Positions 7,019-52,867 of a DNA stretch of 64,000 nucleotides are shown here, piece by piece. The number at the start of each line of letters is the position of its first letter. Position 1 is the first letter of the stretch. The DNA is from an uncultured Candidatus Saccharibacteria bacterium. GTDB taxonomy: Bacteria > Patescibacteriota > Saccharimonadia > Saccharimonadales > UBA10212. The DNA lies in the NCBI GenBank assembly GCA_964460855.1, contig CAYWQH010000009.1, positions 1,351 through 65,350 of the forward strand. The letters run 5' to 3'. The notes beneath the pieces are model-generated. The model was not told the DNA's origin, made no database searches, and saw nothing but the letters and a program-made list of their open reading frames with translations. A program made the position numbers and the translations under genes.

Positions 7019-8383
7019 GTGTTCAAAAAGCGAAACCTGGCCATACTTGGCGCCTTGGTTGGCGTCTCGCTGGCCACGGTGCTGGCCATGTCGGCCACTG
7101 CCAGTTCGTCCACCAAGGCCGTCAACACCCCTATGGGGCAGATCATCCCGGCCTCCCAGGCCCTCAAGCTGGTCAAGGCCTCGCGCCTGAACCGCAAGGT
7201 GCCGGTCGGCTTCTGCGCCCGCAACGGCGTGATTCGCTGGCTCTTCGTCGGCGGCGACGCGCAGGACCCCCACATGACGAAGGCGATGTTCATCCGCGAC
7301 TACGGCAACACCGCCGCGATCCCGGCCATGGAACGGGGCTTCGCCTGCATCAGCCATAACGCGGCGGCCATCGCGGCCGTTTCGCGTCAGCTGGTGTGGA
7401 ACATCCACAAGGGCCACGTGTCGTCCTGCAAGGTGCTGTCCGGCACCTACCTGCCCGCGCTCGGCTACCACTACCTCCGCCATCCATCAATCAAGGCGGC
7501 GGTGTGGTCCGGCAAGGGCACGCTGGGCTGCGTGCAGTCGACCGTCAAGGGCGTGCCCTTCGGTCGTACCTGGGAGGCGATGTGCGGCCCGGCCGTTTGC
7601 ACCTACCAGCGCGTCGCCGACGCCACGTTTGCGGCCGTCAACCGCAGGCCCGGCGGCCCCGATGGCAGCGGCTGCGGCAACATGATTCCGAAGATGATTC
7701 GGACTCGCATCGTGCTGGTGCGCAAGCGATTCCCGGTGGCGAACTTCGCTACCAAGGGCTGGAGCTTCGCGGGCCTGCCTTGGCAGATGCCGGCTGGCGC
7801 CGCGCACCTGCTGGTTAAGTTCCGGCCGCTCAACCCCATCAGCCACAAGTTCGGCGCCGTGACGTCCACGGTGGTCGCCACCCACAACGGCGCCATCTCG
7901 CTGGGCAATGCCTGGCCAGGGTCCCAGTACTGGGTCGCCGAGCTCCATCCCAAGCCCGGCACGGTCGTCATCGACCCGACCACCCACGTGTCCTACAACA
8001 TGGACGCCTGGACGGTCGACCCGCGCGTGCTGACCTTCACCGTCGGCGCCCATCCCACCACGGTCCACTTCGGCAACACGGCCGCGCCATGCATGTGCGT
8101 GGAGTGCATGGGCCACGGCAACTTCGCGGCTGGCTACACCTACACCCGGGAGTTCATGATCACCAGCTGGCAGGGCCCGATGGACGCCCACGCCAAGAGC
8201 CTGATCAAGATCTCTTCGACAACGCCGGCTACGGTCCAGTTCGTCTCCTTCACCACGACCCAGCCGAACCAGTTCGGCGACGTCCTGGTCCAGGTGACCT
8301 TCAAGGCCCTCCAGGCCGGCGCCGGCAACTTGCACGTCGCGTTCGGCAGCGTCCACGATGACGCCCCGCTGACCGTCAAGTAG
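7019..8383 (+). CDS. secreted cysteine-containing protein of unknown function (GC-rich cassette)
   Basis: GTG start 6 nt after AAGGAG. N-terminal signal peptide 'MFKKRNLAILGALVGVSLATVLAMSATA'. Third codon positions are almost all G/C, which picks this frame over the overlapping shadow ORFs. Confidence 0.75.
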   Translation: MFKKRNLAILGALVGVSLATVLAMSATASSSTKAVNTPMGQIIPASQALKLVKASRLNRKVPVGFCARNGVIRWLFVGGDAQDPHMTKAMFIRDYGNTAAIPAMERGFACISHNAAAIAAVSRQLVWNIHKGHVSSCKVLSGTYLPALGYHYLRHPSIKAAVWSGKGTLGCVQSTVKGVPFGRTWEAMCGPAVCTYQRVADATFAAVNRRPGGPDGSGCGNMIPKMIRTRIVLVRKRFPVANFATKGWSFAGLPWQMPAGAAHLLVKFRPLNPISHKFGAVTSTVVATHNGAISLGNAWPGSQYWVAELHPKPGTVVIDPTTHVSYNMDAWTVDPRVLTFTVGAHPTTVHFGNTAAPCMCVECMGHGNFAAGYTYTREFMITSWQGPMDAHAKSLIKISSTTPATVQFVSFTTTQPNQFGDVLVQVTFKALQAGAGNLHVAFGSVHDDAPLTVK

Positions 8384-8851: not shown

Positions 8852-10498
8852 ATGGCTAAAAAAGTTTTTTATGACGACGACGCCCGCCGCCGCGTGTTGG
8901 GCGGGGCAAAAGTTTTATACGACGCTGTGAAAACCACTATGGGCCCCAAAGGCCGCAATGTGGTGATCAGCAAAAGTTACGGCAACCCAACTGTTACCCA
9001 CGACGGCGTAACAGTTGCTAAGGGTGTAGACCTGGAAGACGTCGACGACGAAACCCTGGGCTACAAAGTCGGTGCCGAGCTGATCAAGCAGGCCGCCAGC
9101 AAAATGAATGATGTAGCCGGTGACGGCACAACTACCGTAACGGTTTTGACTTACCATATTTTAAGCGAAGCGAATAAGCTGATAGCCGCCGGCCACAGCC
9201 CGATGCTGCTGCGCAAAGGGCTGGAAGCCGCCTCGCACGAAGTATTAACCAAGCTTGGCGGCATGGCCGAAGATATTGCCGGCAATAACAAGCGGGTGGC
9301 CGAAGTTGCCACCATTAGCGCCGGCGACGCCGAAATCGGCAAGCTAATCGCCGACGTCATGGATAAAGTCGGCAAAGACGGCGTAGTTACCGTAGAAGAA
9401 GGCCAGGGCCTGGCCCTGGAGAGTGAAGTCGTCGAAGGTTTCACTTTCGACCGCGGTTACGTCAGCCCTTATATGGTTACCGACACGGCCCGCATGGAAG
9501 CCGTTTACGATAAACCAGCCATCTTAGTTACCGACGCTAAAATCAGCTCCATCCAGGACTTTTTGCCGATGCTCGAAAAACTGGCCCAGTCCGGCAAAAA
9601 AGACCTGGTTATCGTAGCCGAAGACGTCGACGGCGAAGCTTTAGGAACATTAATCCTTAACAAACTCAAAGGCGTTTTCAATACCGTCGCCATAAAAGCC
9701 CCAGCCTTTGGCGACCGCCGCAAAGAAATTTTAGAAGATATCGCCATATTAACGGGCGGCCAGGTCATCAGTGAAGAGCAGGGCACCACGTTCGAAAATG
9801 CCGAGCTGGATATGATCGGCACCGCCCGCCGGGTAATCGCCACTAAAGACGAAACGACGATTATCGAAGGCAATGGCAGCCAATCGGCCATCAAAGAGCG
9901 GATTGCCCAAATCGCCAAGCAAATCGAAGCCGCTACTAGCGAATACGACAAAGAAAACCTCGAAAAGCGCCGGGCCGCTTTGCAGGGCAAGGTTGCTGTA
10001 ATTAAAGTCGGCGGCGCTACCGAAACCGAAATCGAAGAAAAGAAATTCCGCGTCGACGACGCCGTGCACGCCGTTAAAGCCGCATTGGACGAAGGTATTG
10101 TGCCGGGTGGCGGCGTCACGCTGGTAAACCTGATATTCGAAGTCACTCCGCTTACATCCGAACATACTTCGGTACTTGCCGGCCAAAGCTTACTGTTCAG
10201 AAGTTTCGAACAGCCATTCCGCATTTTGCTGGACAACGCCGGTATTAACCCCGACGAATGGTTGCCCCAGGTCCGCAAGGCCAAGCCGGGCCATGGCGTA
10301 GATGTCAGCAATCCGACCAAGCTTGTTGACCTTAAAGCTGCTGGAATTATTGACCCGGCCCGCGTCACTAAAGAAGCAATCCAAAACGCTGTGTCGATTG
10401 CCGGTACAGCTATGACCATGGGCGCTTTAGTTGCAGATGTGCCAGAGCCAAAATCCGCCCCGACTCCCGATATGGGCGCAATGGGCGGAATGATGTAA
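8852..10498 (+). CDS. groEL: chaperonin GroEL
   Basis: 'AGDGTTTVTVL', 'VAVIKVGGATE' and a C-terminal 'GGMM' tail; 548 aa. Confidence 0.97.
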   Translation: MAKKVFYDDDARRRVLGGAKVLYDAVKTTMGPKGRNVVISKSYGNPTVTHDGVTVAKGVDLEDVDDETLGYKVGAELIKQAASKMNDVAGDGTTTVTVLTYHILSEANKLIAAGHSPMLLRKGLEAASHEVLTKLGGMAEDIAGNNKRVAEVATISAGDAEIGKLIADVMDKVGKDGVVTVEEGQGLALESEVVEGFTFDRGYVSPYMVTDTARMEAVYDKPAILVTDAKISSIQDFLPMLEKLAQSGKKDLVIVAEDVDGEALGTLILNKLKGVFNTVAIKAPAFGDRRKEILEDIAILTGGQVISEEQGTTFENAELDMIGTARRVIATKDETTIIEGNGSQSAIKERIAQIAKQIEAATSEYDKENLEKRRAALQGKVAVIKVGGATETEIEEKKFRVDDAVHAVKAALDEGIVPGGGVTLVNLIFEVTPLTSEHTSVLAGQSLLFRSFEQPFRILLDNAGINPDEWLPQVRKAKPGHGVDVSNPTKLVDLKAAGIIDPARVTKEAIQNAVSIAGTAMTMGALVADVPEPKSAPTPDMGAMGGMM

Positions 10499-10785: not shown

Positions 10786-11643
10786 GTGAAACCGACAGAA
10801 ATGAGGAATATACGGGCGAAGCTAGAGACCTTACAACTGGAATGTACTACGAATAAGGAAGAGGGATTATCTAACAACAAGACCAGTGGCGTTCGCAAGG
10901 CACCGCTCCGCGGGCCGGTCGAGGAAGAGTACGACACTTCGCCGAAGTGGCTGAAGGGTTCGAATCCCCGCGCCAGTAAGCACGCCCCGACCGACAAGCT
11001 CATGCCGACGATCGACGGTGAACTTCTACCGGTCGTGGAGGTGAGGACGGTTGATGGCTACCAGGACGCGGTGGGCACGTATTTCCGCCACATCTACCGC
11101 ATCAAGCGGCAGCCCAAGCTGTGGAGCGGGCCGGCTCATGTCCAGCTGACACACGCGCTGCGCTTCTTCAATATCGCGTCGCGCAAGCTCAGCAACAAGG
11201 CATACCGCCGGGTAGGCCATGAAATCGGCACCCAGGGTAAGATCATGGAAGACCCCGCGGACCTCCTAAAGCGGGCCGGCGCCTCGAAAGCCGTAGCCGA
11301 GAAGATTGTTGTCGACCTGCTGGAGCTCGAACTGCTCCAGCGCCAGCCGAACGGTGTTTACCACGTGCTGGCCAAGCGGCTTGTCGTCATGGCTGGTGAC
11401 TTGCCGTATCCCGAAGAGACCAACGAGCAAGGAGGCACGATCTTGCCTGTCCAAAAGAGCAAGCGCCGCCGCGCCCCCGCGCGCCCTGCGTCGCCGGATT
11501 ACCAGAAGCTACTGGACGAGTTCCAGTTCGCTTCGGAGGAGTTGAGCGAGCACTTCAGGGAGCTCGTCGAACGGAACGCTGAGCTCGAGGCGGAGAACGC
11601 CAGGATGCGCCCTGTCTTCGACATGGCTCACCGCGTCAAGTAG
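10786..11643 (+). CDS. hypothetical protein, GC-rich cassette (possible winged-helix region plus C-terminal coiled coil); start uncertain
   Basis: Longest ORF, with a GTG start. GC3 bias rises from about 10890. An alternative ATG at 11002 lacks an SD. The C-terminus 'ELVERNAELEAENARMR' looks like a coiled coil. Confidence 0.55.
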   Translation: MKPTEMRNIRAKLETLQLECTTNKEEGLSNNKTSGVRKAPLRGPVEEEYDTSPKWLKGSNPRASKHAPTDKLMPTIDGELLPVVEVRTVDGYQDAVGTYFRHIYRIKRQPKLWSGPAHVQLTHALRFFNIASRKLSNKAYRRVGHEIGTQGKIMEDPADLLKRAGASKAVAEKIVVDLLELELLQRQPNGVYHVLAKRLVVMAGDLPYPEETNEQGGTILPVQKSKRRRAPARPASPDYQKLLDEFQFASEELSEHFRELVERNAELEAENARMRPVFDMAHRVK

Positions 11644-19846: not shown

Positions 19847-20980
19847 ATGATAGACCGGGACAGTAATATTGATCTGGGCAGGCCGAAAAAGCTAGAGCAG
19901 TTTGTAAGCTCGCTTCAGTCGTTGAGAGCGCATGCCGGCATGATGGATGTCGGACTGTCATTTTTAGAGCCCGGTGAACTTGATGATCACGCTATCGAAG
20001 TAATAACCCGGCACTTACAGATATTGCATAGCCAGCTTGGCGAATTAGCCCTCAAGGCCGATCTATTATCCGGAGTTCACGAGGCAGCTTCTGTAACGGT
20101 GCTGACGACACTAGACCTCACAACTGAATCAGAACCTGAAGCAACAATTACCGACAAGCCGGAACCCGTCTCTTATATCGAAACGGAGCAATCTATACCG
20201 GCGATAGAACAGCCTGCCGAAAAAGTTGAAACCCCGCCTCTTAACTCAGATGATCTGAACGAAAAGACAAAGAGGGGTATAAAAGTAGAAGTTACCTTGA
20301 CAAATGATGAGGGGATATCCGGCTCAATGCTATTGTCCCGAAGGCAAGCTGAAATTCTTAAAATGATTACGGCAAGTGATAAACCTCTAAAATCAAGTGA
20401 TTTTAAAAGTTTATATGACGCAAAGAATAACCAGGTTTTTTATGCCTGTTTTAGCAGCGACCGGAAAGCGATATTTTTGGAATCCGGGCGGCTTGGCTTC
20501 GCATTTCCAATTGTTTATTCCGGAGCAAAAGGCGGGACCCGCTATTCCAAGCGGCCTGATTTAAGTTTCGAATTCGGTACGAAGGAAATTGATACGGGTC
20601 AGCAAGCTCAAATGCGAAATGTTAGAAGAAGCAAACATACTGATAAAGCCGAGAACAAGGAAGCTGGTATAAGCAGATTAAATTTAATGGCCAATGGAGA
20701 AGCGGTAAGCATAGAAGCCGACGACACACTCCGGCACATCATAAGCAAACTTTCTAAAAACCAGCAGGGCATAACGGTAGCAAAATTACGCGAAGGTTTT
20801 GAGCAAGACCCCAAAGGGCAAAATCAACTGGAATGGATGAGGTGCAAAAACGCATTGCAATATCTTGAAGGGGAATTAGCCGAAGAGATAGGTTTTAAAT
20901 TAATAAGCCATACGATATTAACTATTAGGGGCGAAGAAGACGTATTGTACTTTCTTGCCGACGGTGTTTCTCTGGCCTAA
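19847..20980 (+). CDS. hypothetical protein (lower-GC island gene)
   Basis: 377-aa ORF. It shares its promoter and first codons (MIDRD vs MIERD) with the preceding sigma-like gene. No family recognised. Confidence 0.55.
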   Translation: MIDRDSNIDLGRPKKLEQFVSSLQSLRAHAGMMDVGLSFLEPGELDDHAIEVITRHLQILHSQLGELALKADLLSGVHEAASVTVLTTLDLTTESEPEATITDKPEPVSYIETEQSIPAIEQPAEKVETPPLNSDDLNEKTKRGIKVEVTLTNDEGISGSMLLSRRQAEILKMITASDKPLKSSDFKSLYDAKNNQVFYACFSSDRKAIFLESGRLGFAFPIVYSGAKGGTRYSKRPDLSFEFGTKEIDTGQQAQMRNVRRSKHTDKAENKEAGISRLNLMANGEAVSIEADDTLRHIISKLSKNQQGITVAKLREGFEQDPKGQNQLEWMRCKNALQYLEGELAEEIGFKLISHTILTIRGEEDVLYFLADGVSLA

Positions 20981-42914: not shown

Positions 42915-43039
42915 ATATTAATTATAGCCAGGCAGGGAATTTAAGCTTAAATATATTGTAAAATAGGGCTAATAATGATATAATATGAGTTCAATGCGGA
43001 AATCGGTCCGCATGTACCTGTAGTAAGGAGGTGAGTATC

Positions 43040-43918
43040 TTGCGTGTCCCGACCGACGGGTGGCTGAATGGTGGCTGGAACAACAAGCGCCAGCAGTTCT
43101 ACCTACTGGGCGAGACGGTGGGCCTCGAGCCTAACCCGTCTCCGGAACAGTTGCAGGATACGCTTCGCCGGGTTAGCTCGGCGAAGGTCTTCGCGGAGTC
43201 CATCGCGGACTTCGTGGAGGCGACTGGTATGACCACCAAGCAGGTGGCAGACCGTCTGAAGACGGTCAACCACCAGCTGGGGGTCATGGATCCGCTGCCG
43301 TTCATGTCGCTCAAGGGTCACTGCGACCCGAAGAGCTTCCGCGGCACGGCCATCTGGCCCGCCGGTACGGTTGCCTGGATGCAGCTCCGCTGGGAGCAGA
43401 TCCAGCTGGCCGAGCTGGCCGGCGCGACTTTCGAGCGCGTCATCGTGCTCGGAAGTTCGCGCCAGTGCAACGCTCCGGCCGACCGCCGGCATCCCTACGT
43501 CAACGGGGTCTTCCCCGAGGGCAAGGAGCCGACCGAGCTCGAGCTCATGAAGCAGTGGGTGTTCGCATCCGGCCGAAACACCGGCCAGTATTTGTTCCCC
43601 GAGCTGGACGAGCACAACGAGCAGGGCAAACCGCTCTCGCTGGAGCAGATGCTCCGGCAGTACGGCGAGCGGTACGAGCCCTTCGCGCCTGACTCCCAGG
43701 TGTACGTTCCGGCCAACCCGAACGCATTGTACGTGCCACTGCACGTGCGCCGTGTACTCGGCCTGGACGATGTCTGGCTCAGCCAGGGCGGAGCCCGTCT
43801 GTACAGCGAGATGCCGCCGTACTGGTGGCCCAGCTGCCAGGACCTGATGACGACGCCTTCGGGCATCTTCAGGCTCTGGATCGAGCTGATCCGCAACGGC
43901 TGCATCAACAGCCGGTAA
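43040..43918 (+). CDS. hypothetical protein, GC-rich cassette
   Basis: GC3-biased frame. A TTG at 43040 lies 8 nt after AAGGAGG; the longest ORF begins at a GTG at 43031, abutting the SD. Confidence 0.6.
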   Translation: MRVPTDGWLNGGWNNKRQQFYLLGETVGLEPNPSPEQLQDTLRRVSSAKVFAESIADFVEATGMTTKQVADRLKTVNHQLGVMDPLPFMSLKGHCDPKSFRGTAIWPAGTVAWMQLRWEQIQLAELAGATFERVIVLGSSRQCNAPADRRHPYVNGVFPEGKEPTELELMKQWVFASGRNTGQYLFPELDEHNEQGKPLSLEQMLRQYGERYEPFAPDSQVYVPANPNALYVPLHVRRVLGLDDVWLSQGGARLYSEMPPYWWPSCQDLMTTPSGIFRLWIELIRNGCINSR

Positions 43919-43974: not shown

Positions 43975-44024
43975 GAGCATAAGCAATCGGAATAACAGGG
44001 ATAACAGAGTATAATTGCTAGGTA

Positions 44025-46667
44025 ATGGCAGAGCGTAAAAAATTAGCTATCATTGACGGTAAGAGTGTATTTTACCGGGGTTATTACGCCATGCCCAATT
44101 TGAGCACAAAAGATGGTACGCCCACCGGCGGAGTACACGGCTTCGCGGCCATGGCGCTGGAGCTTGTTAAGCGGCTCAAGCCGGATTACGTGTGCGTGGC
44201 CTGGGACAAGCCCAAAACCAATATCCGCAAGCGCCTGGCGCTGTACGCCGACTATAAAGCCGGCCGCAAACCGGCGCCGCCCGATTTTTACGCCCAGATC
44301 CCGATTCTGCATGAACTGTTAGAAGCCTTCCACTGGCCGCTGTACGAACTGGATGATTACGAAGCCGACGACATTATGGGTACGCTGGCTTGCGCCGCCG
44401 CCAAAAAAGACATCGAAACCATGCTGATTACATCCGATTTGGACGTGCTGCAGCTGGTGGACCCGCACATCCACGTTTACGCCCTCAAGCGCGGTTTTAC
44501 GGATATAGATATCTTTAAACCGGAAAGCTTCGAACAAAAATACGGCATCAAAACCACCCAGTTTTTGGATTTAAAAGCACTGAAAGGCGACAGTTCCGAT
44601 AATATCCCTGGCGTGCCCGGCATTGGTGAAAAAACTGCCCTGGATTTGCTCAAACAATATAATGATCTCGATAACATCTACGATAACCTCGATTTAATTA
44701 AAAATAGTGTGCAGGCCAAGCTCAAAGCCGGCAAAGATCTGGCTTATTTAAGCCGCGAGCTGGCCGAAATCTGGACCGACGCGCCAATTGAGCTGAACCT
44801 CAGCGAAATGGACGGCAGCAAAATGGACACCGCCCATTTGCAGAATATTTTGCAGCGGCTGGAGTTCCGCAGTTTGTTGAGGCAACTGCCCGAAAATATG
44901 CGCTCCGAAACTCCTACCAACGACTTAGTAGGCGGGGTAGAACTGACACTACCAAAATTAACCATGGTCGAATCAGACAAAGTGTTAAACGCCTTGGACT
45001 TTAGCCAGGCCAAACAGCTATATATCCATTCGCGCTCGGCCGGCAAGCACGGCCGCGAGCCGCTGGTTTTAATGATTGGTACCGGCGAACACGCCTACGT
45101 TTTAAATATCAAAAAAATTAGTTCAGCGGCCATCCGCGACAAGCTAAGCCCGATATTCGAAAACAAAGAAATTGGCAAAATCGGCTACGAGATCAAAAAC
45201 GACATTAAATTTTTAAAGAGCATGGGTATTGGCTTTGAATGCGTTGAGCACGACGTATTGGTTGGCGCTTTCTTGATAAACCCCTTGGGCCGCATCCGAA
45301 CCATAACCGAGCTGGCCAGCGACACGATCAGTTTCGAAGGCGCGGCTTTTGAAGATTTGCCTACCGAAGACTTTATGGCCCGGGCGCCGGAATTTATAGC
45401 GGTCATTAAAGAGCTGTATAACCAACAATTGGTTACCTTAAAAGATATGCCTAAAGTGCTTCAGCTGGCTAAAGATATCGAATGGCCGGTTATACCGGTA
45501 CTGGCCGGTATGGAATACGAGGGCATCAAACTCGACGTGCCTTATTTACATAAATTTGCCAAGCAATTAGACGACGCCATATCAGATGTTGAACAAAAAA
45601 TTTACGGCCATGCCGACCAGGAATTTAATATCAGCTCGCCTAGCCAATTAGCCGATGTGCTGTTTACCAAGCTGCTGCTGCCGACGCAGAACATCAAGAA
45701 GTTAAAAACCGGCTATAGCACTGCCGCCAGCGAACTGGATAAGCTGCGCGGCATCCACCCGGTCATCGACCTGATTACCCAATACCGAGAAGTTACCAAG
45801 CTAAAAAACACTTATGTAGATACTTTGCCTAACCAGGTAGACGATAACAGCCGGGTGCACACTACTTTTAACATGACCATGGCCCAAACCGGCCGGCTAA
45901 GCAGCATCGACCCTAATTTGCAGAACATTCCGGTACGTACCGAGCTTGGTAAAAAAATCCGCACGGCTTTTGTAGCCGATAAAGGCAACGTTTTGGTCAG
46001 CGCCGACTATAGCCAGCAGGAGTTGAGAATCGCGGCGGTGATTGCCGGCGACAAAGGCATGCTCGAAGCGTTTAACCGCGACGAAGACATCCATATATTA
46101 ACGGCCGCAGCCGTGCGGGGCATTAAGCCCGAAGAAGTTACTAAAGATATGCGCTACCAGGCCAAGGCCGTTAACTTTGGCATTTTGTACGGGCAGGGGC
46201 CGCACGCCCTGGCGCTGCAAACCGGCCTGACTTTTGCCGAAGCGAAGGAGTTTATCGATAAGTATTTTGAAGTCCGTCCGAAGCTGCGCGAATATATCGA
46301 CGAAACCCGCAAAAAAGCCGTAGAAGTCGGTTATGTCGAAACCATTATGGGCCGCCGCCGGCCGACGCCGGACGCCCACAGCAGTAACTTTGTTGTCCGC
46401 GAAGCAGCCTTGCGCGCCGCCGTTAATATGCCTATCCAAGGTACAGCCGCCGACCTGAGCAAACTGGCAATGATAGAAGTGAATAAAAAAATGGGCGATA
46501 AATGCACAATGTTATTACAAATCCACGACAGCATTTTGGTTGAGTGTCCGGAAAAAGAAGCCGACTCAGTTAGTAAAATGCTGCAAGAAACCATGGAAGG
46601 CGTTTACGAACTGCCAGTAAAGCTCAAAGTTGATATTTCTATCGGCAAAAACTGGGGCGAGCTTTGA
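44025..46667 (+). CDS. polA: DNA polymerase I
   Basis: 880 aa with a 5'-nuclease N-terminal domain, a 3'-5' exo-like middle domain and pol motifs 'DYSQQELR', 'KAVNFGILYG' and 'QIHDS'. Confidence 0.95.
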   Translation: MAERKKLAIIDGKSVFYRGYYAMPNLSTKDGTPTGGVHGFAAMALELVKRLKPDYVCVAWDKPKTNIRKRLALYADYKAGRKPAPPDFYAQIPILHELLEAFHWPLYELDDYEADDIMGTLACAAAKKDIETMLITSDLDVLQLVDPHIHVYALKRGFTDIDIFKPESFEQKYGIKTTQFLDLKALKGDSSDNIPGVPGIGEKTALDLLKQYNDLDNIYDNLDLIKNSVQAKLKAGKDLAYLSRELAEIWTDAPIELNLSEMDGSKMDTAHLQNILQRLEFRSLLRQLPENMRSETPTNDLVGGVELTLPKLTMVESDKVLNALDFSQAKQLYIHSRSAGKHGREPLVLMIGTGEHAYVLNIKKISSAAIRDKLSPIFENKEIGKIGYEIKNDIKFLKSMGIGFECVEHDVLVGAFLINPLGRIRTITELASDTISFEGAAFEDLPTEDFMARAPEFIAVIKELYNQQLVTLKDMPKVLQLAKDIEWPVIPVLAGMEYEGIKLDVPYLHKFAKQLDDAISDVEQKIYGHADQEFNISSPSQLADVLFTKLLLPTQNIKKLKTGYSTAASELDKLRGIHPVIDLITQYREVTKLKNTYVDTLPNQVDDNSRVHTTFNMTMAQTGRLSSIDPNLQNIPVRTELGKKIRTAFVADKGNVLVSADYSQQELRIAAVIAGDKGMLEAFNRDEDIHILTAAAVRGIKPEEVTKDMRYQAKAVNFGILYGQGPHALALQTGLTFAEAKEFIDKYFEVRPKLREYIDETRKKAVEVGYVETIMGRRRPTPDAHSSNFVVREAALRAAVNMPIQGTAADLSKLAMIEVNKKMGDKCTMLLQIHDSILVECPEKEADSVSKMLQETMEGVYELPVKLKVDISIGKNWGEL

Positions 46668-47224
46668 CCGAATTATTTGATATCGTAGACCAAAACGACC
46701 AACCAACAGGTAAAACTACAGATAAGGTGGCTGCTCATCGGGACGGTATATTACATCGGGTTGCTGCAATATTAGTTTTTACGGACAGTGGTGAGTTACT
46801 GATTCAAGAACACAAATCTCACGGCAGGTTATGGGACCATTCGGTAGGGGGCCATGTGCAGGCAGGTGAATCATATTCTGCAGCAGCCAAGAGGGAATTG
46901 GACGAAGAGTTGGGGTTGGATTTGCCGTTAGAAGAGATTAAAACCGGAGTTCCAACTTTAAATATTGATCCGCGGCCGCAGTATAAAAACGGAAAACATT
47001 TTTATGGGGTTTATACGTGCAGCGTACCCAGCGATTGGGTGCATAAAGAAACGGAAGAAGTAGACCGGTTAATAGCTATGCCGGTCGCCGAAGTAGTTAA
47101 AATAATGAATTCTGAACCGGAAAAGTTTTTGAACGGTTTTTTTATTACGCTTAGCACTTACTTAAACAGTATTAACTCGGATCTAAAAATTAAAGCCTTT
47201 GGCCAGAACTGGGGCGAACTTTAA
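46664..47224 (+). CDS. NUDIX hydrolase (lower-GC insertion)
   Basis: NUDIX box 'GGHVQAGESYSAAAKRELDEELGL'. The TTG start overlaps the polA stop. The C-terminus GQNWGEL copies the polA C-terminus GKNWGEL. Confidence 0.8.
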   Translation: MTELFDIVDQNDQPTGKTTDKVAAHRDGILHRVAAILVFTDSGELLIQEHKSHGRLWDHSVGGHVQAGESYSAAAKRELDEELGLDLPLEEIKTGVPTLNIDPRPQYKNGKHFYGVYTCSVPSDWVHKETEEVDRLIAMPVAEVVKIMNSEPEKFLNGFFITLSTYLNSINSDLKIKAFGQNWGEL

Positions 47225-47664
47225 TGCTTGGGAATAAAAAGGACTCATATTATGTAGCGTTTAAATTGTTGCTGCGGAATGGTGACAAGTTGCTGATTAC
47301 CCATGATATTTTTGGCGCCTGGGATATTCCCGGCGGCCGGATCCGGCAGGATGAATTCGACAAGCCCATCGAACAAGTTATTGAGCGCAAAATGAAAGAA
47401 GAGCTGGGCGGCGATGTTAAGTACGAAGTTGGCCCGCCGGTAACTTTCTTTAGGGTAGAGCGGGCCGAACATGACCAGGGCGGGGAGTTGGTACGGATTT
47501 TCGCGGTGGGCTACGACGCCAAATTCCTGGGCGGTAAAGTTAAACTGGGCAAGCACCATGACCAAATGGAATGGGTAGATGTAAAAACTTTCCAGCCAGA
47601 AAAGTATTTTACCGGCGGCTGGCTAACCGGCATCCAAGAATATTTAGCCAAAGTCCGCGGCTAA
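47224..47664 (+). CDS. NUDIX hydrolase
   Basis: 'PGGRIRQDE...IERKMKEELGG' NUDIX-like box. The start overlaps the previous stop (TAATG). Confidence 0.7.
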   Translation: MLGNKKDSYYVAFKLLLRNGDKLLITHDIFGAWDIPGGRIRQDEFDKPIEQVIERKMKEELGGDVKYEVGPPVTFFRVERAEHDQGGELVRIFAVGYDAKFLGGKVKLGKHHDQMEWVDVKTFQPEKYFTGGWLTGIQEYLAKVRG

Positions 47665-47729
47665 TTTTTTAACCTTTTTTACTGTAAAATAAACTTAAGC
47701 ATTTAATCTTAACCAGCTAAAGGAAGCTA

Positions 47730-49469
47730 ATGGTGGGCATGAGCCTGAAATCGGTATACTCGCTGCCGGTCAAGATTATTCTTGGGCGCAAAATTGATGA
47801 TTTGTCCGATGCTTTATATAAACGGCTGCGCTTTTTGTGCGTCATTTACGCCGTAGGCTTCGCGTTTACGCTTTTGCTGTTGTCGATAGATACGGCCAAG
47901 CGTTTTCCGGTTGGCATGCTGCTGGACTTTACCATTTTAGCCGGCATCGTGGTTATTTGCATTAAGCTGCGCTCGGCTAAAACCTACCGCTGGGCTTTTC
48001 ATGCCACGGTGGCCGTGCTGGCGGCCGTCATACAGTTTACTTATTTCTTGGCGATCGGCACGCCGCAGGCACTGCTGTTGATGCCGATGGTGTTAATCCT
48101 GGCATATTTTTTGCTGGGCCAGCGCTCCGGCTTGCTTTGGAGCATCGCCGTAATATGCGGCAATATCGCGGCTTTGGCTATCGGCCAGCTGGGTTGGGCC
48201 TATTTACCGATAACCACCCACGTAATGGTTTATTCGATTATGAACTTGGCCGTAATTTCGGCGTTTTTGTACGTGTACGAAGGGGTAAACAAAGATAATG
48301 AAGAACGGATAGCCGTCCGCGACCGCAAACTCAAAACACTTAATGGCCAGCTGGCTGACGAAAAAGCCCATGTCGAGCACCTGGTAGAAGTCCGCACCCA
48401 CCAGCTGCACGAAGAAGAGGCCCGCCTGCAGGCTTCAATTATGGCCCTGGAGCTGGGCTTTATTATGGTGCTGCGCGACTGGAGCGTGGCCCGTTATAAC
48501 CCGGCATTGCTGCATATCGTGGACGGCCTAGTGGAGAACTCCAACGTATCGCTGGTTTGGCAGCTTATAGAAAAAGTCCACCGCTCGTACCATCTCGATA
48601 AGGCTATCGAGAAATGCCTCAAAAACGGCAAGTCGTTTTCGAAAACCGACATCCCGGTTGGCGACAAGTTCGTGCGGATTATCGGCTCGGCTATCCATAA
48701 CGGCCATAGTGGTAAGGTTATCGGCGTGGTGCTGCTGGTAGAGGATATGACCGAAGAAAAAATGCTGGAGCGCCGAGAGGACGAGTTCGTATCGATCGCC
48801 TCGCACGAGCTGCGCACGCCGCTGACAGTTATAGAAGGCAACTTATCGATTATCGAGGACGAATTCGGCAGCGAAATAAAAGACGAGGCGCTTAAACATA
48901 TGCTGGGCAACGTTAAAGACTCATCCGGCCGGCTGATCCAAATCGTTAACCAGTTCTTAAACATGACCCGCCTGGAGCAAAATAAAACCGTGTTTAACCT
49001 CACCAGGGCGGACATAAATTCGATTGTACGGCAGGTAGCTTCGGAGCTGGGGCCGATTGCCCATAAGAAAGGCCTGGAAGTAAAAATGGAGCTGGCTACC
49101 GAAAACGTCTGCGTAACGGCCGACGTCCGGCGGCTGCAGGAAATCGTATCGAATATGTTCGATAACGCCATCAAATACACCGATAAAGGCAGCATCATAT
49201 TGCGCACGGTGCACACCGGTAACGATGTTATTTTCCAGGTCGAAGATACGGGCAAGGGCATCGAGCCTAAAAACCAAAAGCACCTGTTTTATAAATTCCA
49301 CCAAGCGACGAATAATATTCTGACGCGCGACGACAGCCGCAGCACCGGCCTTGGCTTATACATATCCCGCTTGCTGGCCGAGCAAATGGGCGGCCGGGTG
49401 GAACTGACCCGTTCGGTGCCGGGCAAAGGCTCTTTGTTTACGCTGACACTGCGCAAGTACGAAAAATAA
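47730..49469 (+). CDS. sensor histidine kinase (membrane, PAS-like, HisKA/HATPase_c); no adjacent response regulator
   Basis: About 6 TM helices, H-box 'SHELRTPL', N-box 'DNAIKYT', G1 'EDTGKGI' and G2 'GLGLYISR'. Confidence 0.88.
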   Translation: MVGMSLKSVYSLPVKIILGRKIDDLSDALYKRLRFLCVIYAVGFAFTLLLLSIDTAKRFPVGMLLDFTILAGIVVICIKLRSAKTYRWAFHATVAVLAAVIQFTYFLAIGTPQALLLMPMVLILAYFLLGQRSGLLWSIAVICGNIAALAIGQLGWAYLPITTHVMVYSIMNLAVISAFLYVYEGVNKDNEERIAVRDRKLKTLNGQLADEKAHVEHLVEVRTHQLHEEEARLQASIMALELGFIMVLRDWSVARYNPALLHIVDGLVENSNVSLVWQLIEKVHRSYHLDKAIEKCLKNGKSFSKTDIPVGDKFVRIIGSAIHNGHSGKVIGVVLLVEDMTEEKMLERREDEFVSIASHELRTPLTVIEGNLSIIEDEFGSEIKDEALKHMLGNVKDSSGRLIQIVNQFLNMTRLEQNKTVFNLTRADINSIVRQVASELGPIAHKKGLEVKMELATENVCVTADVRRLQEIVSNMFDNAIKYTDKGSIILRTVHTGNDVIFQVEDTGKGIEPKNQKHLFYKFHQATNNILTRDDSRSTGLGLYISRLLAEQMGGRVELTRSVPGKGSLFTLTLRKYEK

Positions 49470-50541: not shown

Positions 50542-51843
50542 TCAATCTTCGCCGTTTTGGTAGAGGTCGATGAGGTCTTTGACCGAGCCGAAAGCGATGC
50601 GGTCGAGGATGAAATTGTCCATGTTGACCACCAGCGCCGAAGCGACGGTTAAGTCTCCGTAAGTGTCGTTTATTTCGTCGAGGGCCCGGGCCAGGGCGTG
50701 GCTGTCCAGCCGGGTGCCGTCGTCGAGGCTGAGCTGCAGCGGCTCGTACGGCACCAGGTCGTAAACGGTAATGGCCAGGTGGGCGACCACTTTGGCTGCC
50801 GGCTGTTGGTCTAGGAGACGCGTGGCATGGACATAGATATCCTGCGTCGTGAACAGCCGGCCGCCAATGCGTTCGCCGTGGTGCCACATGGTGCGGTCGT
50901 CGTAAATGCAGCTGACGTGGATGGCTTCGGCGAAGAACCCGTGGCGGCGCAGCCGCCGGCCGGTTTTTTCGCACAGCTTCATCATCAGCCGGTTGAGGTG
51001 GTCGCGGTCGGCGGTTTTTTGGCCGAGCGCGTAAGTGTGGCCGATGCTGCGGCGCTTGAAGTCGACGCCGTCGATCTCCCAGCCCCGCAGCCGTAAATAC
51101 CAGTAGTAGCCATTGATTGATTCGAACACGATCTTTTTAAGCACGTGCATCGGGGCATTAAAGAACTCTAGGGGCGTGGTGATTCCGGCCCGGTAAAGTC
51201 GTCGTCGATTTCGAATATTAATGCCGCAAATATCGAGTAGGTCCATGTGTTGGTATACATCTTGTAAATTCTCCTTGGTTATTACATCTAAGCCGTCGGG
51301 CTTGTGCAGGCCGGCGGCCGTTTTTGCTAAAAAGCGGTTGGTGCCGAGGCCGACATTTACGGTAACGTAACTGCCGACTTCGTCGCGCACCCGCCGCTTA
51401 ATTTCTTTGCCTATTTCAATTAGCGACCGCTCGTCTTTGATGGCCGCGTCGTTAAAGTCGATGATCATTTCGTCGATCGATTTGGGTGTGACCCGGCTGG
51501 TGTAGCTTTCGAATATCCGCTTAAAGCGGATGTGGGCGTCGCGGTACTTGGGCGGGTCGGGCGGCAGCACTATCATATCGGGGCAGAGCTTGAGGCCGTC
51601 CATCACCCGCATGCCGGTTTTAACGCCGCAGCGCTTGGCTTCGTAGCTGGGCGCCAATATGCAGCCGCGGGGGCTAACGTAGGCCGCCACGGCCACCGGC
51701 TTGCCGCGCAGCAGGGGGTTGGCCTGCTGCTCCATGATGGCGAAGCAGCTGTTCATATCGATGTGCATTACCAGCGGCCGGGCGGTGTTAACCGGCATTT
51801 CGATGAAACCCAGCGGGTAGTTAGGCTTCAAACTGTTGGCCAC
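50542..51843 (-). CDS. dinB: Y-family DNA polymerase (DinB/UmuC-like)
   Basis: 'MHIDMNSCFAIMEQ', 'SIDEMIIDF' and little-finger domain length. The GTG start overlaps the upstream stop by 1 nt. Confidence 0.85.
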   Translation of the reverse strand: MANSLKPNYPLGFIEMPVNTARPLVMHIDMNSCFAIMEQQANPLLRGKPVAVAAYVSPRGCILAPSYEAKRCGVKTGMRVMDGLKLCPDMIVLPPDPPKYRDAHIRFKRIFESYTSRVTPKSIDEMIIDFNDAAIKDERSLIEIGKEIKRRVRDEVGSYVTVNVGLGTNRFLAKTAAGLHKPDGLDVITKENLQDVYQHMDLLDICGINIRNRRRLYRAGITTPLEFFNAPMHVLKKIVFESINGYYWYLRLRGWEIDGVDFKRRSIGHTYALGQKTADRDHLNRLMMKLCEKTGRRLRRHGFFAEAIHVSCIYDDRTMWHHGERIGGRLFTTQDIYVHATRLLDQQPAAKVVAHLAITVYDLVPYEPLQLSLDDGTRLDSHALARALDEINDTYGDLTVASALVVNMDNFILDRIAFGSVKDLIDLYQNGED

Positions 51844-52118
51844 TAGTTAACCTCACTACTGCCCAATTTTCCGAGCAGCCACGTTAAATCTTCAGTATTG
51901 AACTTGAGCTCGAAAAAGTGGACGCCGTCGGTGGCCGAAAAAACGTGGATGGTGGCCCGGCCCTGCTTGTATTTATGGTGGTAGCCCAGCTCTTTAATTA
52001 CGTACTCCCGGCCGTGCCATTCCAGCCGGAAGGGGGACAGGTCTTTGTAGGTATCTTTGGGGAAGCGGGCTATCACCGCAACCCTCTCATTAATCGTTTC
52101 ATACATTGGTTTCTCCAA
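51843..52118 (-). CDS. small protein translationally coupled to the Y-family polymerase (possible accessory factor)
   Basis: 91 aa. The stop TAG overlaps the dinB GTG (TAGTG). Confidence 0.5.
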   Translation of the reverse strand: MEKPMYETINERVAVIARFPKDTYKDLSPFRLEWHGREYVIKELGYHHKYKQGRATIHVFSATDGVHFFELKFNTEDLTWLLGKLGSSEVN

Positions 52119-52180
52119 TTGAAGTTTTAGTTGTTAATTTTTTGCTTTATAGGTTCGCTAAATTCATTCACAATATAGGT

Positions 52181-52867
52181 ATGTGCGGAAGATACACCTT
52201 ACATGCCCAGGCCGAGGAAATTGCCGAACGGTTCGGCGTGGACGATATTCTGCAGGGTTACCGCGAGAACTATAACGTCGCTCCCGGGCAAATCATGCCG
52301 GTGATTACCGAAGACGAATCGGGCCATAGGCATTTGGAGCTGATGAAGTGGGGCCTGATACCGTTTTGGGCCAAAGACCCTAAAATCGGTTACAAGCTCA
52401 TCAACGCCCGCGACGATACGATCTTCGACAAGCCGATGTGGCGCAACGTGGTGTTAAAGAAACGGGCTTTGATACCGGCCGACGGGTTTTACGAATGGAA
52501 GAAGCCGGAAGACCCCAAAGGCCGCAAACAGCCTTTTTATATTCATCCCAAACGAGAAAACTTGTTTGCCTTTGCCGGGGTTTGGGAAACCTGGAAAGAC
52601 GTTGAAGGCAAAGAGATTAAAACCTATTCGATTATTACGACCGACCCTAATAAAGAGATGCGGGGCGTGCATAACCGTATGCCTGTGATATTGGACCAAA
52701 AAGACGAAGCTTCGTGGTTGGAGCCGTCGCACACCAGCCGGGAAGACGTTGAGCCTTTCCTGCACCCGTATGACGATAATGGCTTGGATATGTTTGAGGT
52801 CAGCAGTGACGTGAATGTTACCCGGAATAACGAGGAAAAACTCATTTATCCGCTTAACTCCCAGTGA
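52181..52867 (+). CDS. SOS response-associated peptidase (SRAP/YedK family)
   Basis: It begins 'MCGRYTL' with the catalytic Cys2, and has 'NARDDT' and 'FYEW'. The longest track ORF (from 52106) adds 25 implausible residues. Confidence 0.85.
   Translation: MCGRYTLHAQAEEIAERFGVDDILQGYRENYNVAPGQIMPVITEDESGHRHLELMKWGLIPFWAKDPKIGYKLINARDDTIFDKPMWRNVVLKKRALIPADGFYEWKKPEDPKGRKQPFYIHPKRENLFAFAGVWETWKDVEGKEIKTYSIITTDPNKEMRGVHNRMPVILDQKDEASWLEPSHTSREDVEPFLHPYDDNGLDMFEVSSDVNVTRNNEEKLIYPLNSQ

Follow-up and report, generated by a model that had tools for sequence, protein, structure and literature searches.

Small genes arranged one behind another at a fixed position are known from integron arrays (attI/attC, IntI), in which promoterless units of one orientation stand behind an anchor that gives expression, a repeat follows each unit, order and content vary between genomes, and toxin-antitoxin cassettes occur inside. 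Prophages and islands inserted by an integrase at the 3' end of a gene regenerate that end and leave a direct repeat at their distal side (attL/attR), and transposons are flanked by short direct repeats of their target. In homology-facilitated illegitimate recombination (HFIR) during natural transformation, as PMC6382021 relates it from de Vries & Wackernagel 2002 and Prudhomme et al. 2002, a conserved anchor is combined with a very short second homology. Genes may also be joined by stop/start translational coupling (ATGA, TAATG), the restart codon overlapping the preceding stop and a purine- or G-rich stretch lying in the last codons. Here we describe gene stacks behind polA, the gene of DNA polymerase I, in Saccharibacteria, which have a likeness to each of these systems and also differ from each. 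We analysed a stretch of 64,000 nucleotides from an uncultured Candidatus Saccharibacteria bacterium (assembly GCA_964460855.1, contig CAYWQH010000009.1, positions 1,351 to 65,350 of the forward strand), hereafter called the window. In it a Nudix hydrolase gene, NUDIX-1 (n1), lies directly 3' of polA and ends in a copy of the polA ending, here called the tail; a second Nudix gene, NUDIX-2 (n2), follows. In related genomes at least ten gene families that are unrelated to one another have the borrowed polA ending, all of them stacked behind polA. Full-text searches of the literature found no description of polA-tail cassettes.

The polA gene (880 aa) occupies 44025..46667 of the plus strand. Its last seven codons and stop, GGCAAAAACTGGGGCGAGCTTTGA (46644..46667, plus strand; GKNWGEL-stop), recur on the same strand as GGCCAGAACTGGGGCGAACTTTAA (47201..47224; GQNWGEL-stop), where they are translated as the C-terminus of NUDIX-1. 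The repeat had been reported in the initial annotation of the window, and sequence comparison confirmed it: the copies are identical at 20 of 24 nucleotides and stand in the same reading frame (GGC AAA AAC TGG GGC GAG CTT TGA and GGC CAG AAC TGG GGC GAA CTT TAA). The chance of a match of at least 20/24 at one position is 4.1e-9, and 5e-4 such matches are expected on both strands of the window. We found no further match of at least 18/24 to the tail in the window and none in 300 shuffles; a search across the window with up to three mismatches returned the polA copy alone, as expected.

Unrelated genes might converge on W-G-E at their ends because overlapping junctions need a G-rich ribosome-binding stretch, and TGG-GGN-GAR does contain a Shine-Dalgarno-like G-run that is suitably spaced from the restart codon. 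However, the number of matches expected by chance is very small, and the identity extends over G-K-N and L-stop, which a Shine-Dalgarno sequence does not need. When 49,158 pairs of open reading frame (ORF) ends lying at most 3 kb apart were scanned, 16 pairs were similar and 13 of these were polA tails; copies of the tail are restricted to arrays downstream of polA. We therefore regard convergence or chance as extremely improbable. The same scan, returning almost only polA tails, rules out that repeated ends are a general property of gene junctions. An assembly artefact is likewise ruled out, by two independent assemblies (SRR9179560, SRR9179562) that are 100% identical to window positions 46163-48595 and by recurrence in more than 15 unrelated assemblies.

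The direction of copying could be read from the domain boundaries of the two proteins. PolA carries the Pfam domains 5_3_exonuc_N, 5_3_exonuc and DNA_pol_A and scores 929.7 bits against NCBIfam PRK05755 (cutoff 720), which identifies it as DNA polymerase I. The DNA_pol_A match (PF00476) covers residues 507-879 of 880 and reaches profile position 381/381, and thus includes the tail. The PF00293 match of NUDIX-1 (E = 4e-18, 66.1 bits, cutoff 21.1) covers residues 31-155 of 186 and leaves the tail outside the domain. Among 78 complete polA 3' ends from Saccharibacteria, 74 read G-x-[NT]-W-G-E-L-stop, the commonest endings being GKNWGEL (40), GDNWGEL (12) and GQNWGEL (5); G.NW, described in the initial annotation as a normal PolA ending, is indeed near-invariant. 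Since the tail belongs to the DNA_pol_A domain and is conserved in these polA genes while the NUDIX domain stops short of it, polA is the source and NUDIX-1 the recipient: the seven C-terminal codons and the stop of NUDIX-1 have been copied from the corresponding codons and stop of polA. Third codon positions of the tail vary freely across the 78 genes, and selection there therefore acts on the PolA protein. Scored with a position weight matrix (PWM) of the tail, the NUDIX-1 copy reaches 34.9, which equals the median of polA tails (34.9). The best 80 relatives of polA were all from metagenome-assembled genomes of Saccharibacteria or Patescibacteria.

NUDIX-1 (46664..47224, plus strand, 186 aa) encodes an IDI-like/YfcD-like Nudix hydrolase with the borrowed tail. 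Both the PF00293 score and an intact Nudix box GX5EX7REUXEEXGU (G63-HVQAG-E69-SYSAAAK-R77-E78-L-D-E81-E82-L-G84-L) place it in the NUDIX superfamily, and E69, R77, E78, E81 and E82 are invariant in the family alignment. Comparison with PDB entries showed a weak resemblance to IDI, YfcD and DR0079-type Nudix proteins. An assignment as isopentenyl-diphosphate isomerase type 1 was rejected, with 50.5 bits against PRK03759 (cutoff 127) and 35.5 against TIGR02150 (cutoff 105.8); in an alignment to 3hyq the SVCGHP of IDI corresponds to SVGGHV in NUDIX-1, so that the catalytic Cys is replaced by Gly. NUDIX-1 stays under every NCBIfam cutoff. NUDIX-2 (47224..47664, plus strand, 146 aa; PF00293 E = 5e-7), a divergent Nudix protein, is the last gene of the operon and has no tail.

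Both junctions in the window are overlaps. The TTG start of NUDIX-1 overlaps the TGA stop of polA in TTGA (46664..46667, plus strand; cTTTGAcc, with TG in common), and its TAA stop (47222-47224) overlaps the ATG of NUDIX-2 (47224-47226) in TTAATG (47221..47226, plus strand); ORF coordinates agree with the initial annotation on both starts. The start of NUDIX-1 is homologous in position to ATG-ACT-GAA in L081 and GTG-ACA-GAA in L084 (L-numbers denote loci, i.e. genome or metagenome contexts; the scans covered 163 of these and the window). Promoter and terminator scans between polA and NUDIX-2 gave nothing above background, and the genes, overlapping at TTGA and TAATG with neither element in between, are laid out as a translationally coupled operon. 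NUDIX-1 and NUDIX-2 have no promoter or good Shine-Dalgarno sequence of their own, and their restart codons lie 9-13 nt after the G-run TGGGG; the promoterless inserts would therefore depend on termination and restart at the tail.

In composition NUDIX-1 stands apart from its surroundings. The segment between the tail copies (46668..47200, plus strand), for which a lower G+C had been noted initially, has a G+C content of 42.2%, compared to 49.6% in polA, 49.4% in NUDIX-2 and 51.2% in the window, and it falls within the lowest 4% of 533-nt windows by G+C. G+C at third codon positions (GC3) is 0.41 in NUDIX-1, 0.60 in polA and 0.57 in NUDIX-2, and in orthologues of NUDIX-1 it stays at 0.34-0.43 irrespective of the GC3 of the host polA (0.42-0.64). 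NUDIX-1 is compositionally foreign in this genome, an outlier between native-looking neighbours. We also considered a donor-derived 3' end of polA, as the last 80 polA codons in the window have a GC3 of 0.47 vs 0.60 for the body of the gene and all five NUDIX-1-bearing relatives rank higher in similarity across the final 219 nt. Both shifts are suggestive yet within normal fluctuation, and the idea was kept as no more than a weak hint.

We then determined how closely the tail is linked to polA within the NUDIX-1 family. The nine closest database homologues (53-61% identical) all have a polA-like heptapeptide end, e.g. AYGKNWGEL or AFGQDWSEL; remoter homologues (161-175 aa) end about 20 residues earlier. 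The eight family genes whose tail is intact all follow polA on its strand, at distances from the polA stop of -3 nt (window), +6 nt (L084 and L007), +64 nt (L083), +91 nt (L081), +569 nt (L085), +581 nt (L010) and +1188 nt (L082). Degenerate NUDIX tails (RKNWGKTR-stop, RHNWSKTH-stop, AAWGSSY...) are likewise found 0.7-1.7 kb 3' of polA. The tail is absent from all 24 family members that have at least 2.5 kb of upstream sequence and no polA in it (0/24; Fisher p = 2.5e-4). Tailed members thus all lie downstream of polA and members elsewhere have no tail, which upholds the initial proposal that the NUDIX protein inherited its tail from PolA. A longer duplication reaching back to polA ...LPVKLKVD was rejected, since the 'LP[YVF]xL' extension of NUDIX also occurs in members far from polA (L099, L110, L115, L141) and is a family feature or a coincidence.

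The junction A[FY]-G[KQ][ND]W[GS]EL-stop is common to the window and five other genomes whose NUDIX-1 proteins are 49-61% identical, and a neighbour-joining tree built on the NUDIX core unites the window with L081-L085 in one clade that has this junction. Since orthologues of such low identity have it in common, the fusion predates these genomes and was not made by an insertion here. NUDIX-1 and its tail are an old unit, and the tail was already part of the gene when it reached its present position.

Relatives with and without the unit could be compared directly. In L006 and L026 an orthologue of NUDIX-2 (63-65% identical) lies directly 3' of polA, and the architecture of this junction is the same as that of the TTAATG junction between NUDIX-1 and NUDIX-2 in the window. 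Three further genes follow the NUDIX-1 tail in one genome and polA itself in others: gene M (L084; directly after polA in L043), a 103-aa gene (L081; L005 and L016) and a methyltransferase (L085, in the order polA-Ham1-n1-MTase; L042). For all four downstream genes the overlap architecture is the same after the polA tail or the NUDIX-1 tail. In L083 NUDIX-1 precedes YecM, and no matching empty site (polA-YecM) was seen. Comparing polA 3' ends and downstream genes among relatives, as the initial annotation had proposed, thus yielded empty as well as occupied sites.

The initial annotation had interpreted the arrangement as a cassette insertion that duplicated about 24 bp of its target. Its first part stands, as NUDIX-1 looks like an insert, given polA-NUDIX-2 in L006/L026 and its outlying composition; the second does not, as no insertion in this genome duplicated the 24 bp. 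In a fresh insertion the last 24 bp of polA would be cut in a staggered way, a NUDIX fragment captured and the gaps filled in. It would account for two direct 24-nt copies flanking a low-GC gene exactly at the polA stop, and for relatives in which polA is followed directly by NUDIX-2. However, the junction is old and common to the five other genomes, the copies already differ at 4/24 positions, and the copied length ranges from 16 to 33 nt among cases. Target-site duplications are usually far shorter than 24 bp. Moreover, neither a transposase or integrase nor inverted repeats were found at the window locus, where the insert is a single NUDIX ORF. A target-site duplication made in this genome is therefore very unlikely, and the polA repeat differs from those of transposons and insertion sequences in its 24 nt, its variable boundary and an age greater than that of the insertion.

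Copies of the tail are by no means restricted to Nudix genes. When 164 sequences were scanned for the tail, by six-frame motif and by PWM, the 0.47 Mb lying 3' of polA on its strand yielded 21 extra copies and the other 2.69 Mb only 2, one of these 2 belonging to a truncated duplicate of the L090 polA locus. The PWM scan found no tail copy on the reverse strand. Carriers of the tail include Ham1/ITPase (L085, GKYWGEL), YecM (L083, TKNWGE-stop), 2H/LigT phosphoesterase (L051 and L166, GKNWGEL), RibD_C (L035, GKNWGGL), an AAA_18 (P-loop) kinase (L009) and SAM methyltransferases (GKNWGEQ in L090, decayed GQNRGQL in L009). The tail is also carried by the unknown family F19 (HHNWGEL in L010, decayed to QNKGK-stop in L051), an unknown 84-aa protein (L009, GKNWGGL), an unknown 227-aa family (L166 and L168, decayed NRGEL) and a second NUDIX lineage (L010) that is at most 33% identical to all others. 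Orthologues without a tail were found for Ham1 (L048) and for YecM (L051, L046). Seven loci have two or more extra copies, and L009 has at least four. An unbiased polA-anchored genome sample had about 74 loci that extend far enough downstream, and 6 of these have at least one extra tail.

A prediction made blind for the 2H family held. The tail-bearing homologue P0059 (55% identical) lies directly 3' of polA, as does P0060, whose tail is frameshifted by a 1-nt deletion in the A-run; the tail-less homologue P0061 (43% identical) is not at polA. In L168 (1873-1892) a 1-nt deletion in the A-run (GGAAAAA-TTGGGG) puts the 2H gene out of the tail frame and yields GKIGESYERDIS-stop; this run of A is thus a place where the repeat is easily broken by mutation.

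Which small promoterless genes lie directly 3' of polA differs from genome to genome. Within the stacks genes are joined head to tail by stop/start overlaps of 1-4 nt (NTGA, TAATG, TAGTG). In 15 of 19 cases the units run from tail to tail, the start overlapping the previous stop and the end being the unit's own tail, and the last gene has no tail, e.g. NUDIX-2 in the window. All examined tail stops but one (a mini-ORF in L082) overlap or abut the start of the next gene. The copied segment measures 16-33 nt, usually 24, and its left boundary varies among independent cases; in the comparison of L035 with L009 the junction falls at a 6-nt microhomology, AAAGAC. Six orphan tails each form the end of an ATG-initiated mini-ORF of 9-24 codons (MASLSNHKNWGEL, MDDSGKNWGEL, MGRIYNKLVTDRAGKNWGQL, MISRACPERAQRVEWVSIGDNWGQL, MSEQSESNDWGEL and MSHKDWGEL, each followed by a stop), and five of these six finish on the start codon of the following gene. 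Decayed tails have lost the W and kept the part from G-E-L to the stop/start, and decay is also seen where no gene adjoins the tail downstream (L130, L103).

Could the heptapeptide be a functional C-terminal motif, e.g. for docking or turnover, of PolA and enzymes of the nucleotide pool? NUDIX-1 and 2H orthologues at about 55% identity do conserve it at the amino acid level with synonymous changes, many of its carriers are nucleotide house-cleaning enzymes (NUDIX, Ham1), and the AlphaFold2 (AF2) model of NUDIX-1, with a mean predicted local distance difference test score (pLDDT) of 96.6, places the last six residues at 83. On the other hand, the tail of PolA is the end of the polymerase domain and not a free motif, and this end is buried in the PolA structure. 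The carriers include unrelated enzymes as well as the mini-ORFs, orthologues without a tail exist, and the W may be lost (NRGEL, QNRGQL, QNKGK) while the stop/start overlap is kept. The scans never found the tail away from polA arrays, and terminal genes of the stacks have none. A functional motif is thus quite unlikely to explain the repeat.

Stacks of single promoterless genes in one direction, each followed by the same repeat, are also what a dedicated site-specific system would produce, in which a recombinase recognises the tail of about 24 nt and inserts or excises cassettes at polA. The tail-to-tail units, the presence of toxin-antitoxin modules (VapBC, RelE-like) inside the arrays as in chromosomal integrons, and the occurrence of one cassette before different genes fit such an integron-like system. 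However, no recombinase was found among the ORFs at 38.7-53.9 kb of the window (±6-8 kb) or in the gene tables of L081, L083 and L166, and neither an adjacent intI nor attC sites are present. The tail lacks dyad symmetry, inverted copies of it were not found, nothing is conserved outside it, its flanks being unrelated and its left boundary variable, and the AAAGAC microhomology accounts for one junction. We consider a dedicated system unlikely. In comparison to integron arrays the polA stacks lack an integrase and are short (1-5 units), and their repeat is a translated in-frame coding copy of 16-33 nt without the inverted repeats or hairpin of attC.

Insertion of a prophage or island does not describe the locus either. 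The insert at polA is one gene of 0.56 kb (a 557-nt unit) without integrase, its distal repeat is fused in frame and reused as the next junction, and a stack holds several inserts that each bring a copy of their own. The tail pattern had no match in viral contigs, and a phage or plasmid vector was rejected on this ground.

From the distribution and recurrence of the tail, the architecture of its junctions and the composition of NUDIX-1 we infer a route by recombination together with a coupling of translation. The tail is probably, though by no means certainly, a portable linker that offers a short homology for recombination at polA and at the same time a stop-restart junction for translation. 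With its near-invariant tail, the 3' region of polA is present in every Saccharibacterium and would serve as the anchor for pairing. A donor molecule polA-3'...tail-X-tail could pair on both sides, by a long arm in polA and by an arm of about 24 nt at the resident tail, which would insert X, keep polA intact and leave the direct repeat. Alternatively, a circularised X-tail unit might enter by a single crossover in the tail and give the same product. New families may gain the tail by microhomology joins in its A-rich start. DNA would probably be taken up by natural transformation, and ordinary recombination would be filtered by selection for an intact PolA and a continuing flow of ribosomes. 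Ordinary recombination is favoured since the boundaries are not fixed and the searches turned up neither an integrase or transposase nor an inverted repeat or a link to viruses.

Natural competence has been demonstrated in Saccharibacteria, with integration of DNA by homologous recombination (PMC10633639). HFIR needs 3-10 bp of microhomology, and about 25-35 bp are enough for RecA-mediated exchange (PMC6382021), which is close to the tail length of about 24 nt. The single junction with a 6-nt microhomology (L035) recalls HFIR. Classical HFIR usually deletes recipient DNA, whereas the polA stacks keep the duplicated anchor end, and the short arm at polA is a reusable sequence of about 24 nt carried by the cassette; HFIR is a candidate process here.

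In translation the tail would act as a terminate-and-restart junction that hands ribosomes from polA down the stack. Such a coupling role would explain that tails stay translated, persist as mini-ORFs and decay where no gene follows. Other stop/start couplings differ in that the polA module has been copied from one essential gene to many genes and mini-ORFs and has thereby become a recognisable repeat.

Besides the steady GC3 of NUDIX-1, two observations bear on exchange between genomes. The identities of NUDIX-1 are out of step with those of polA: L082 resembles L007/L096 more closely in polA (73-74%) than in NUDIX-1 (41-47%), whereas compared with the window its polA is 68% and its NUDIX-1 61% identical. 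In L085 the tails of polA and NUDIX-1 both read GKDWGEL and match at 23/24 nt, and the D occurs in none of the 78 other polA tails.

Several points weigh against the linker reading. At the nucleotide level polA differs by 30-40% between the sampled genomes, which is beyond efficient RecA exchange, and transfers would therefore need closer, unsampled relatives. No recombination intermediate, donor or recent event was observed among the sampled genomes. The closest relative of NUDIX-1 is 61% identical, and the direction of the change (insertion or deletion of NUDIX-1) and its date are read indirectly. When cassette tails were compared with the tail of their own polA, a permutation test gave p = 0.10 for nucleotides and p = 0.02 for synonymous codons, so that frequent local crossover in the tails is not demonstrated; a general concerted evolution of polA and cassette tails was rejected on the same weak result, with L085 and L081 alone standing out. 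For the first joining of a tail to a new family the reading offers no detailed account. The proposed coupling of translation is read from the sequence, in which the G-run of the tail is a weak match to a Shine-Dalgarno sequence and the commonest Gly codon is GGC, not the better-pairing GGA. Finally, W and G of the tail are conserved among NUDIX-1 orthologues, and judging from the structural model the tail may have been co-opted structurally or gained a role at the protein level in this family.

If the linker reading is extended to the group, Saccharibacteria may have a recombinase-free cassette system on an essential gene, with the last ~24 nt of polA serving as homology arm for exchange by transformation and as translational restart. 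We put forward such a functional analogue of an integron only tentatively, as a possibility. The genomes of Saccharibacteria and other Patescibacteria are tiny, few mobile elements have been recognised in them, and little is understood of how genes are gained and shuffled in these bacteria. With a hotspot behind an essential, universally conserved gene an operon could grow in a simple way, each added gene inheriting the C-terminal codons of the anchor; such a route would need no dedicated machinery and fits the natural competence of the group. The stacks account for odd ...GKNWGEL extensions at the C-terminus of unrelated annotated proteins and advise caution before these are read as functional motifs. 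For the engineering of Saccharibacteria the polA stop would offer a built-in expression site. Nucleotide house-cleaning enzymes (NUDIX, Ham1) are enriched beside polA, which may point to a functional theme. The window also encodes, a few kb 3' of polA, a DinB-type translesion polymerase (IMS; 50542-51843, minus strand) and an SRAP/YedK abasic-site peptidase (52106-52867, plus strand), and together with the NUDIX genes these form a DNA-maintenance neighbourhood.

Some further features were noticed within the stacks. A stretch of ~10 codons from the start of the 103-aa 'KVYNKLVRDKIPE' gene is joined to the N-terminus of NUDIX-1 in L082 (2668-2700; MAKKVYNKLV followed by SYEEEKFDIVD) and to the polA tail, as a mini-ORF, in L096 (5549-5611); these fusions look like deletion scars. 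For the 103-aa protein a MazG-like label was considered and dropped, having no Pfam or NCBIfam support, and the protein was left unassigned. Toxin-antitoxin pairs lie within the stacks of L009 (9468-10105, VapBC-like) and L090 (1248-1821, RelE-like), and AbrB/PIN-like pairs within those of L103 (3041-3710) and L130 (4311-4989). A conserved element of about 35 nt, TAATGAGACAAACCACAGGTTTTTCTCACCGCGCCGGGC, follows the polA stop in L081 (4908-4945) and stands immediately behind that stop in L014, L055 and L130 as well; it has hairpin potential or may be a short ORF (MRQ..FSHRAG), and it has no Rfam match. A known RNA element was rejected, as Rfam gave one tRNA only in the window and nothing in the conserved spacer behind polA of L081. 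Another element, GAGCGAGC(AA/GC)AGCGAGTCGAATG, lies within or beside the polA-tail copy in two unrelated genomes (L009 11454-11485, L027 8635-8675) and nowhere else in the 163 loci or the window; it translates as ...ERSESNG / ERAKRVE.

Repeated gene ends were also seen apart from polA. In L159 (560-1565; the region is the same as in L161) the end of a histidine kinase, ...FYIRLLKA-stop, is repeated about 980 nt downstream as ...GYIRLPKA-stop, with a RelE-like toxin remnant and a NUDIX gene between the copies. This pair, one of the similar pairs in the ORF-end scan that are not polA tails, looks like the same process of 3'-end duplication at a different anchor gene. On the minus strand of L044 two ORFs ending at 9253 and 11592, 2.3 kb apart, both end in WRIHQVA-stop (20/21 nt identical); they may represent tandem paralogues or a further case of a repeated 3' end.

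Four ORFs of the window (43031-43918, 7019-8383, 10786-11643 and 50542-51843) have a GC3 of 0.76-0.91, compared to 0.55-0.65 typical of the genome, and may come from a high-GC organism, e.g. an actinobacterial host. The 295-aa ORF immediately 5' of polA had no Pfam match. With regard to expression of the operon, TATAAT at 44010..44015 (plus strand), 10-15 nt 5' of the polA ATG, is possibly the -10 box of its promoter and would give a short-leader or leaderless mRNA; a strict consensus promoter scan did not call it. The 22 nt 5' of the polA start read aacagagTATAATtgctaggta, and many genes of the window have the same layout. TATAAT-like hexamers lie 7-15 nt 5' of many starts, e.g. of polA and of the genes at 19847, 22263, 34244 and 59280, and few genes of the window have a Shine-Dalgarno sequence, which suggests that leaderless or short-leader mRNAs are widespread.

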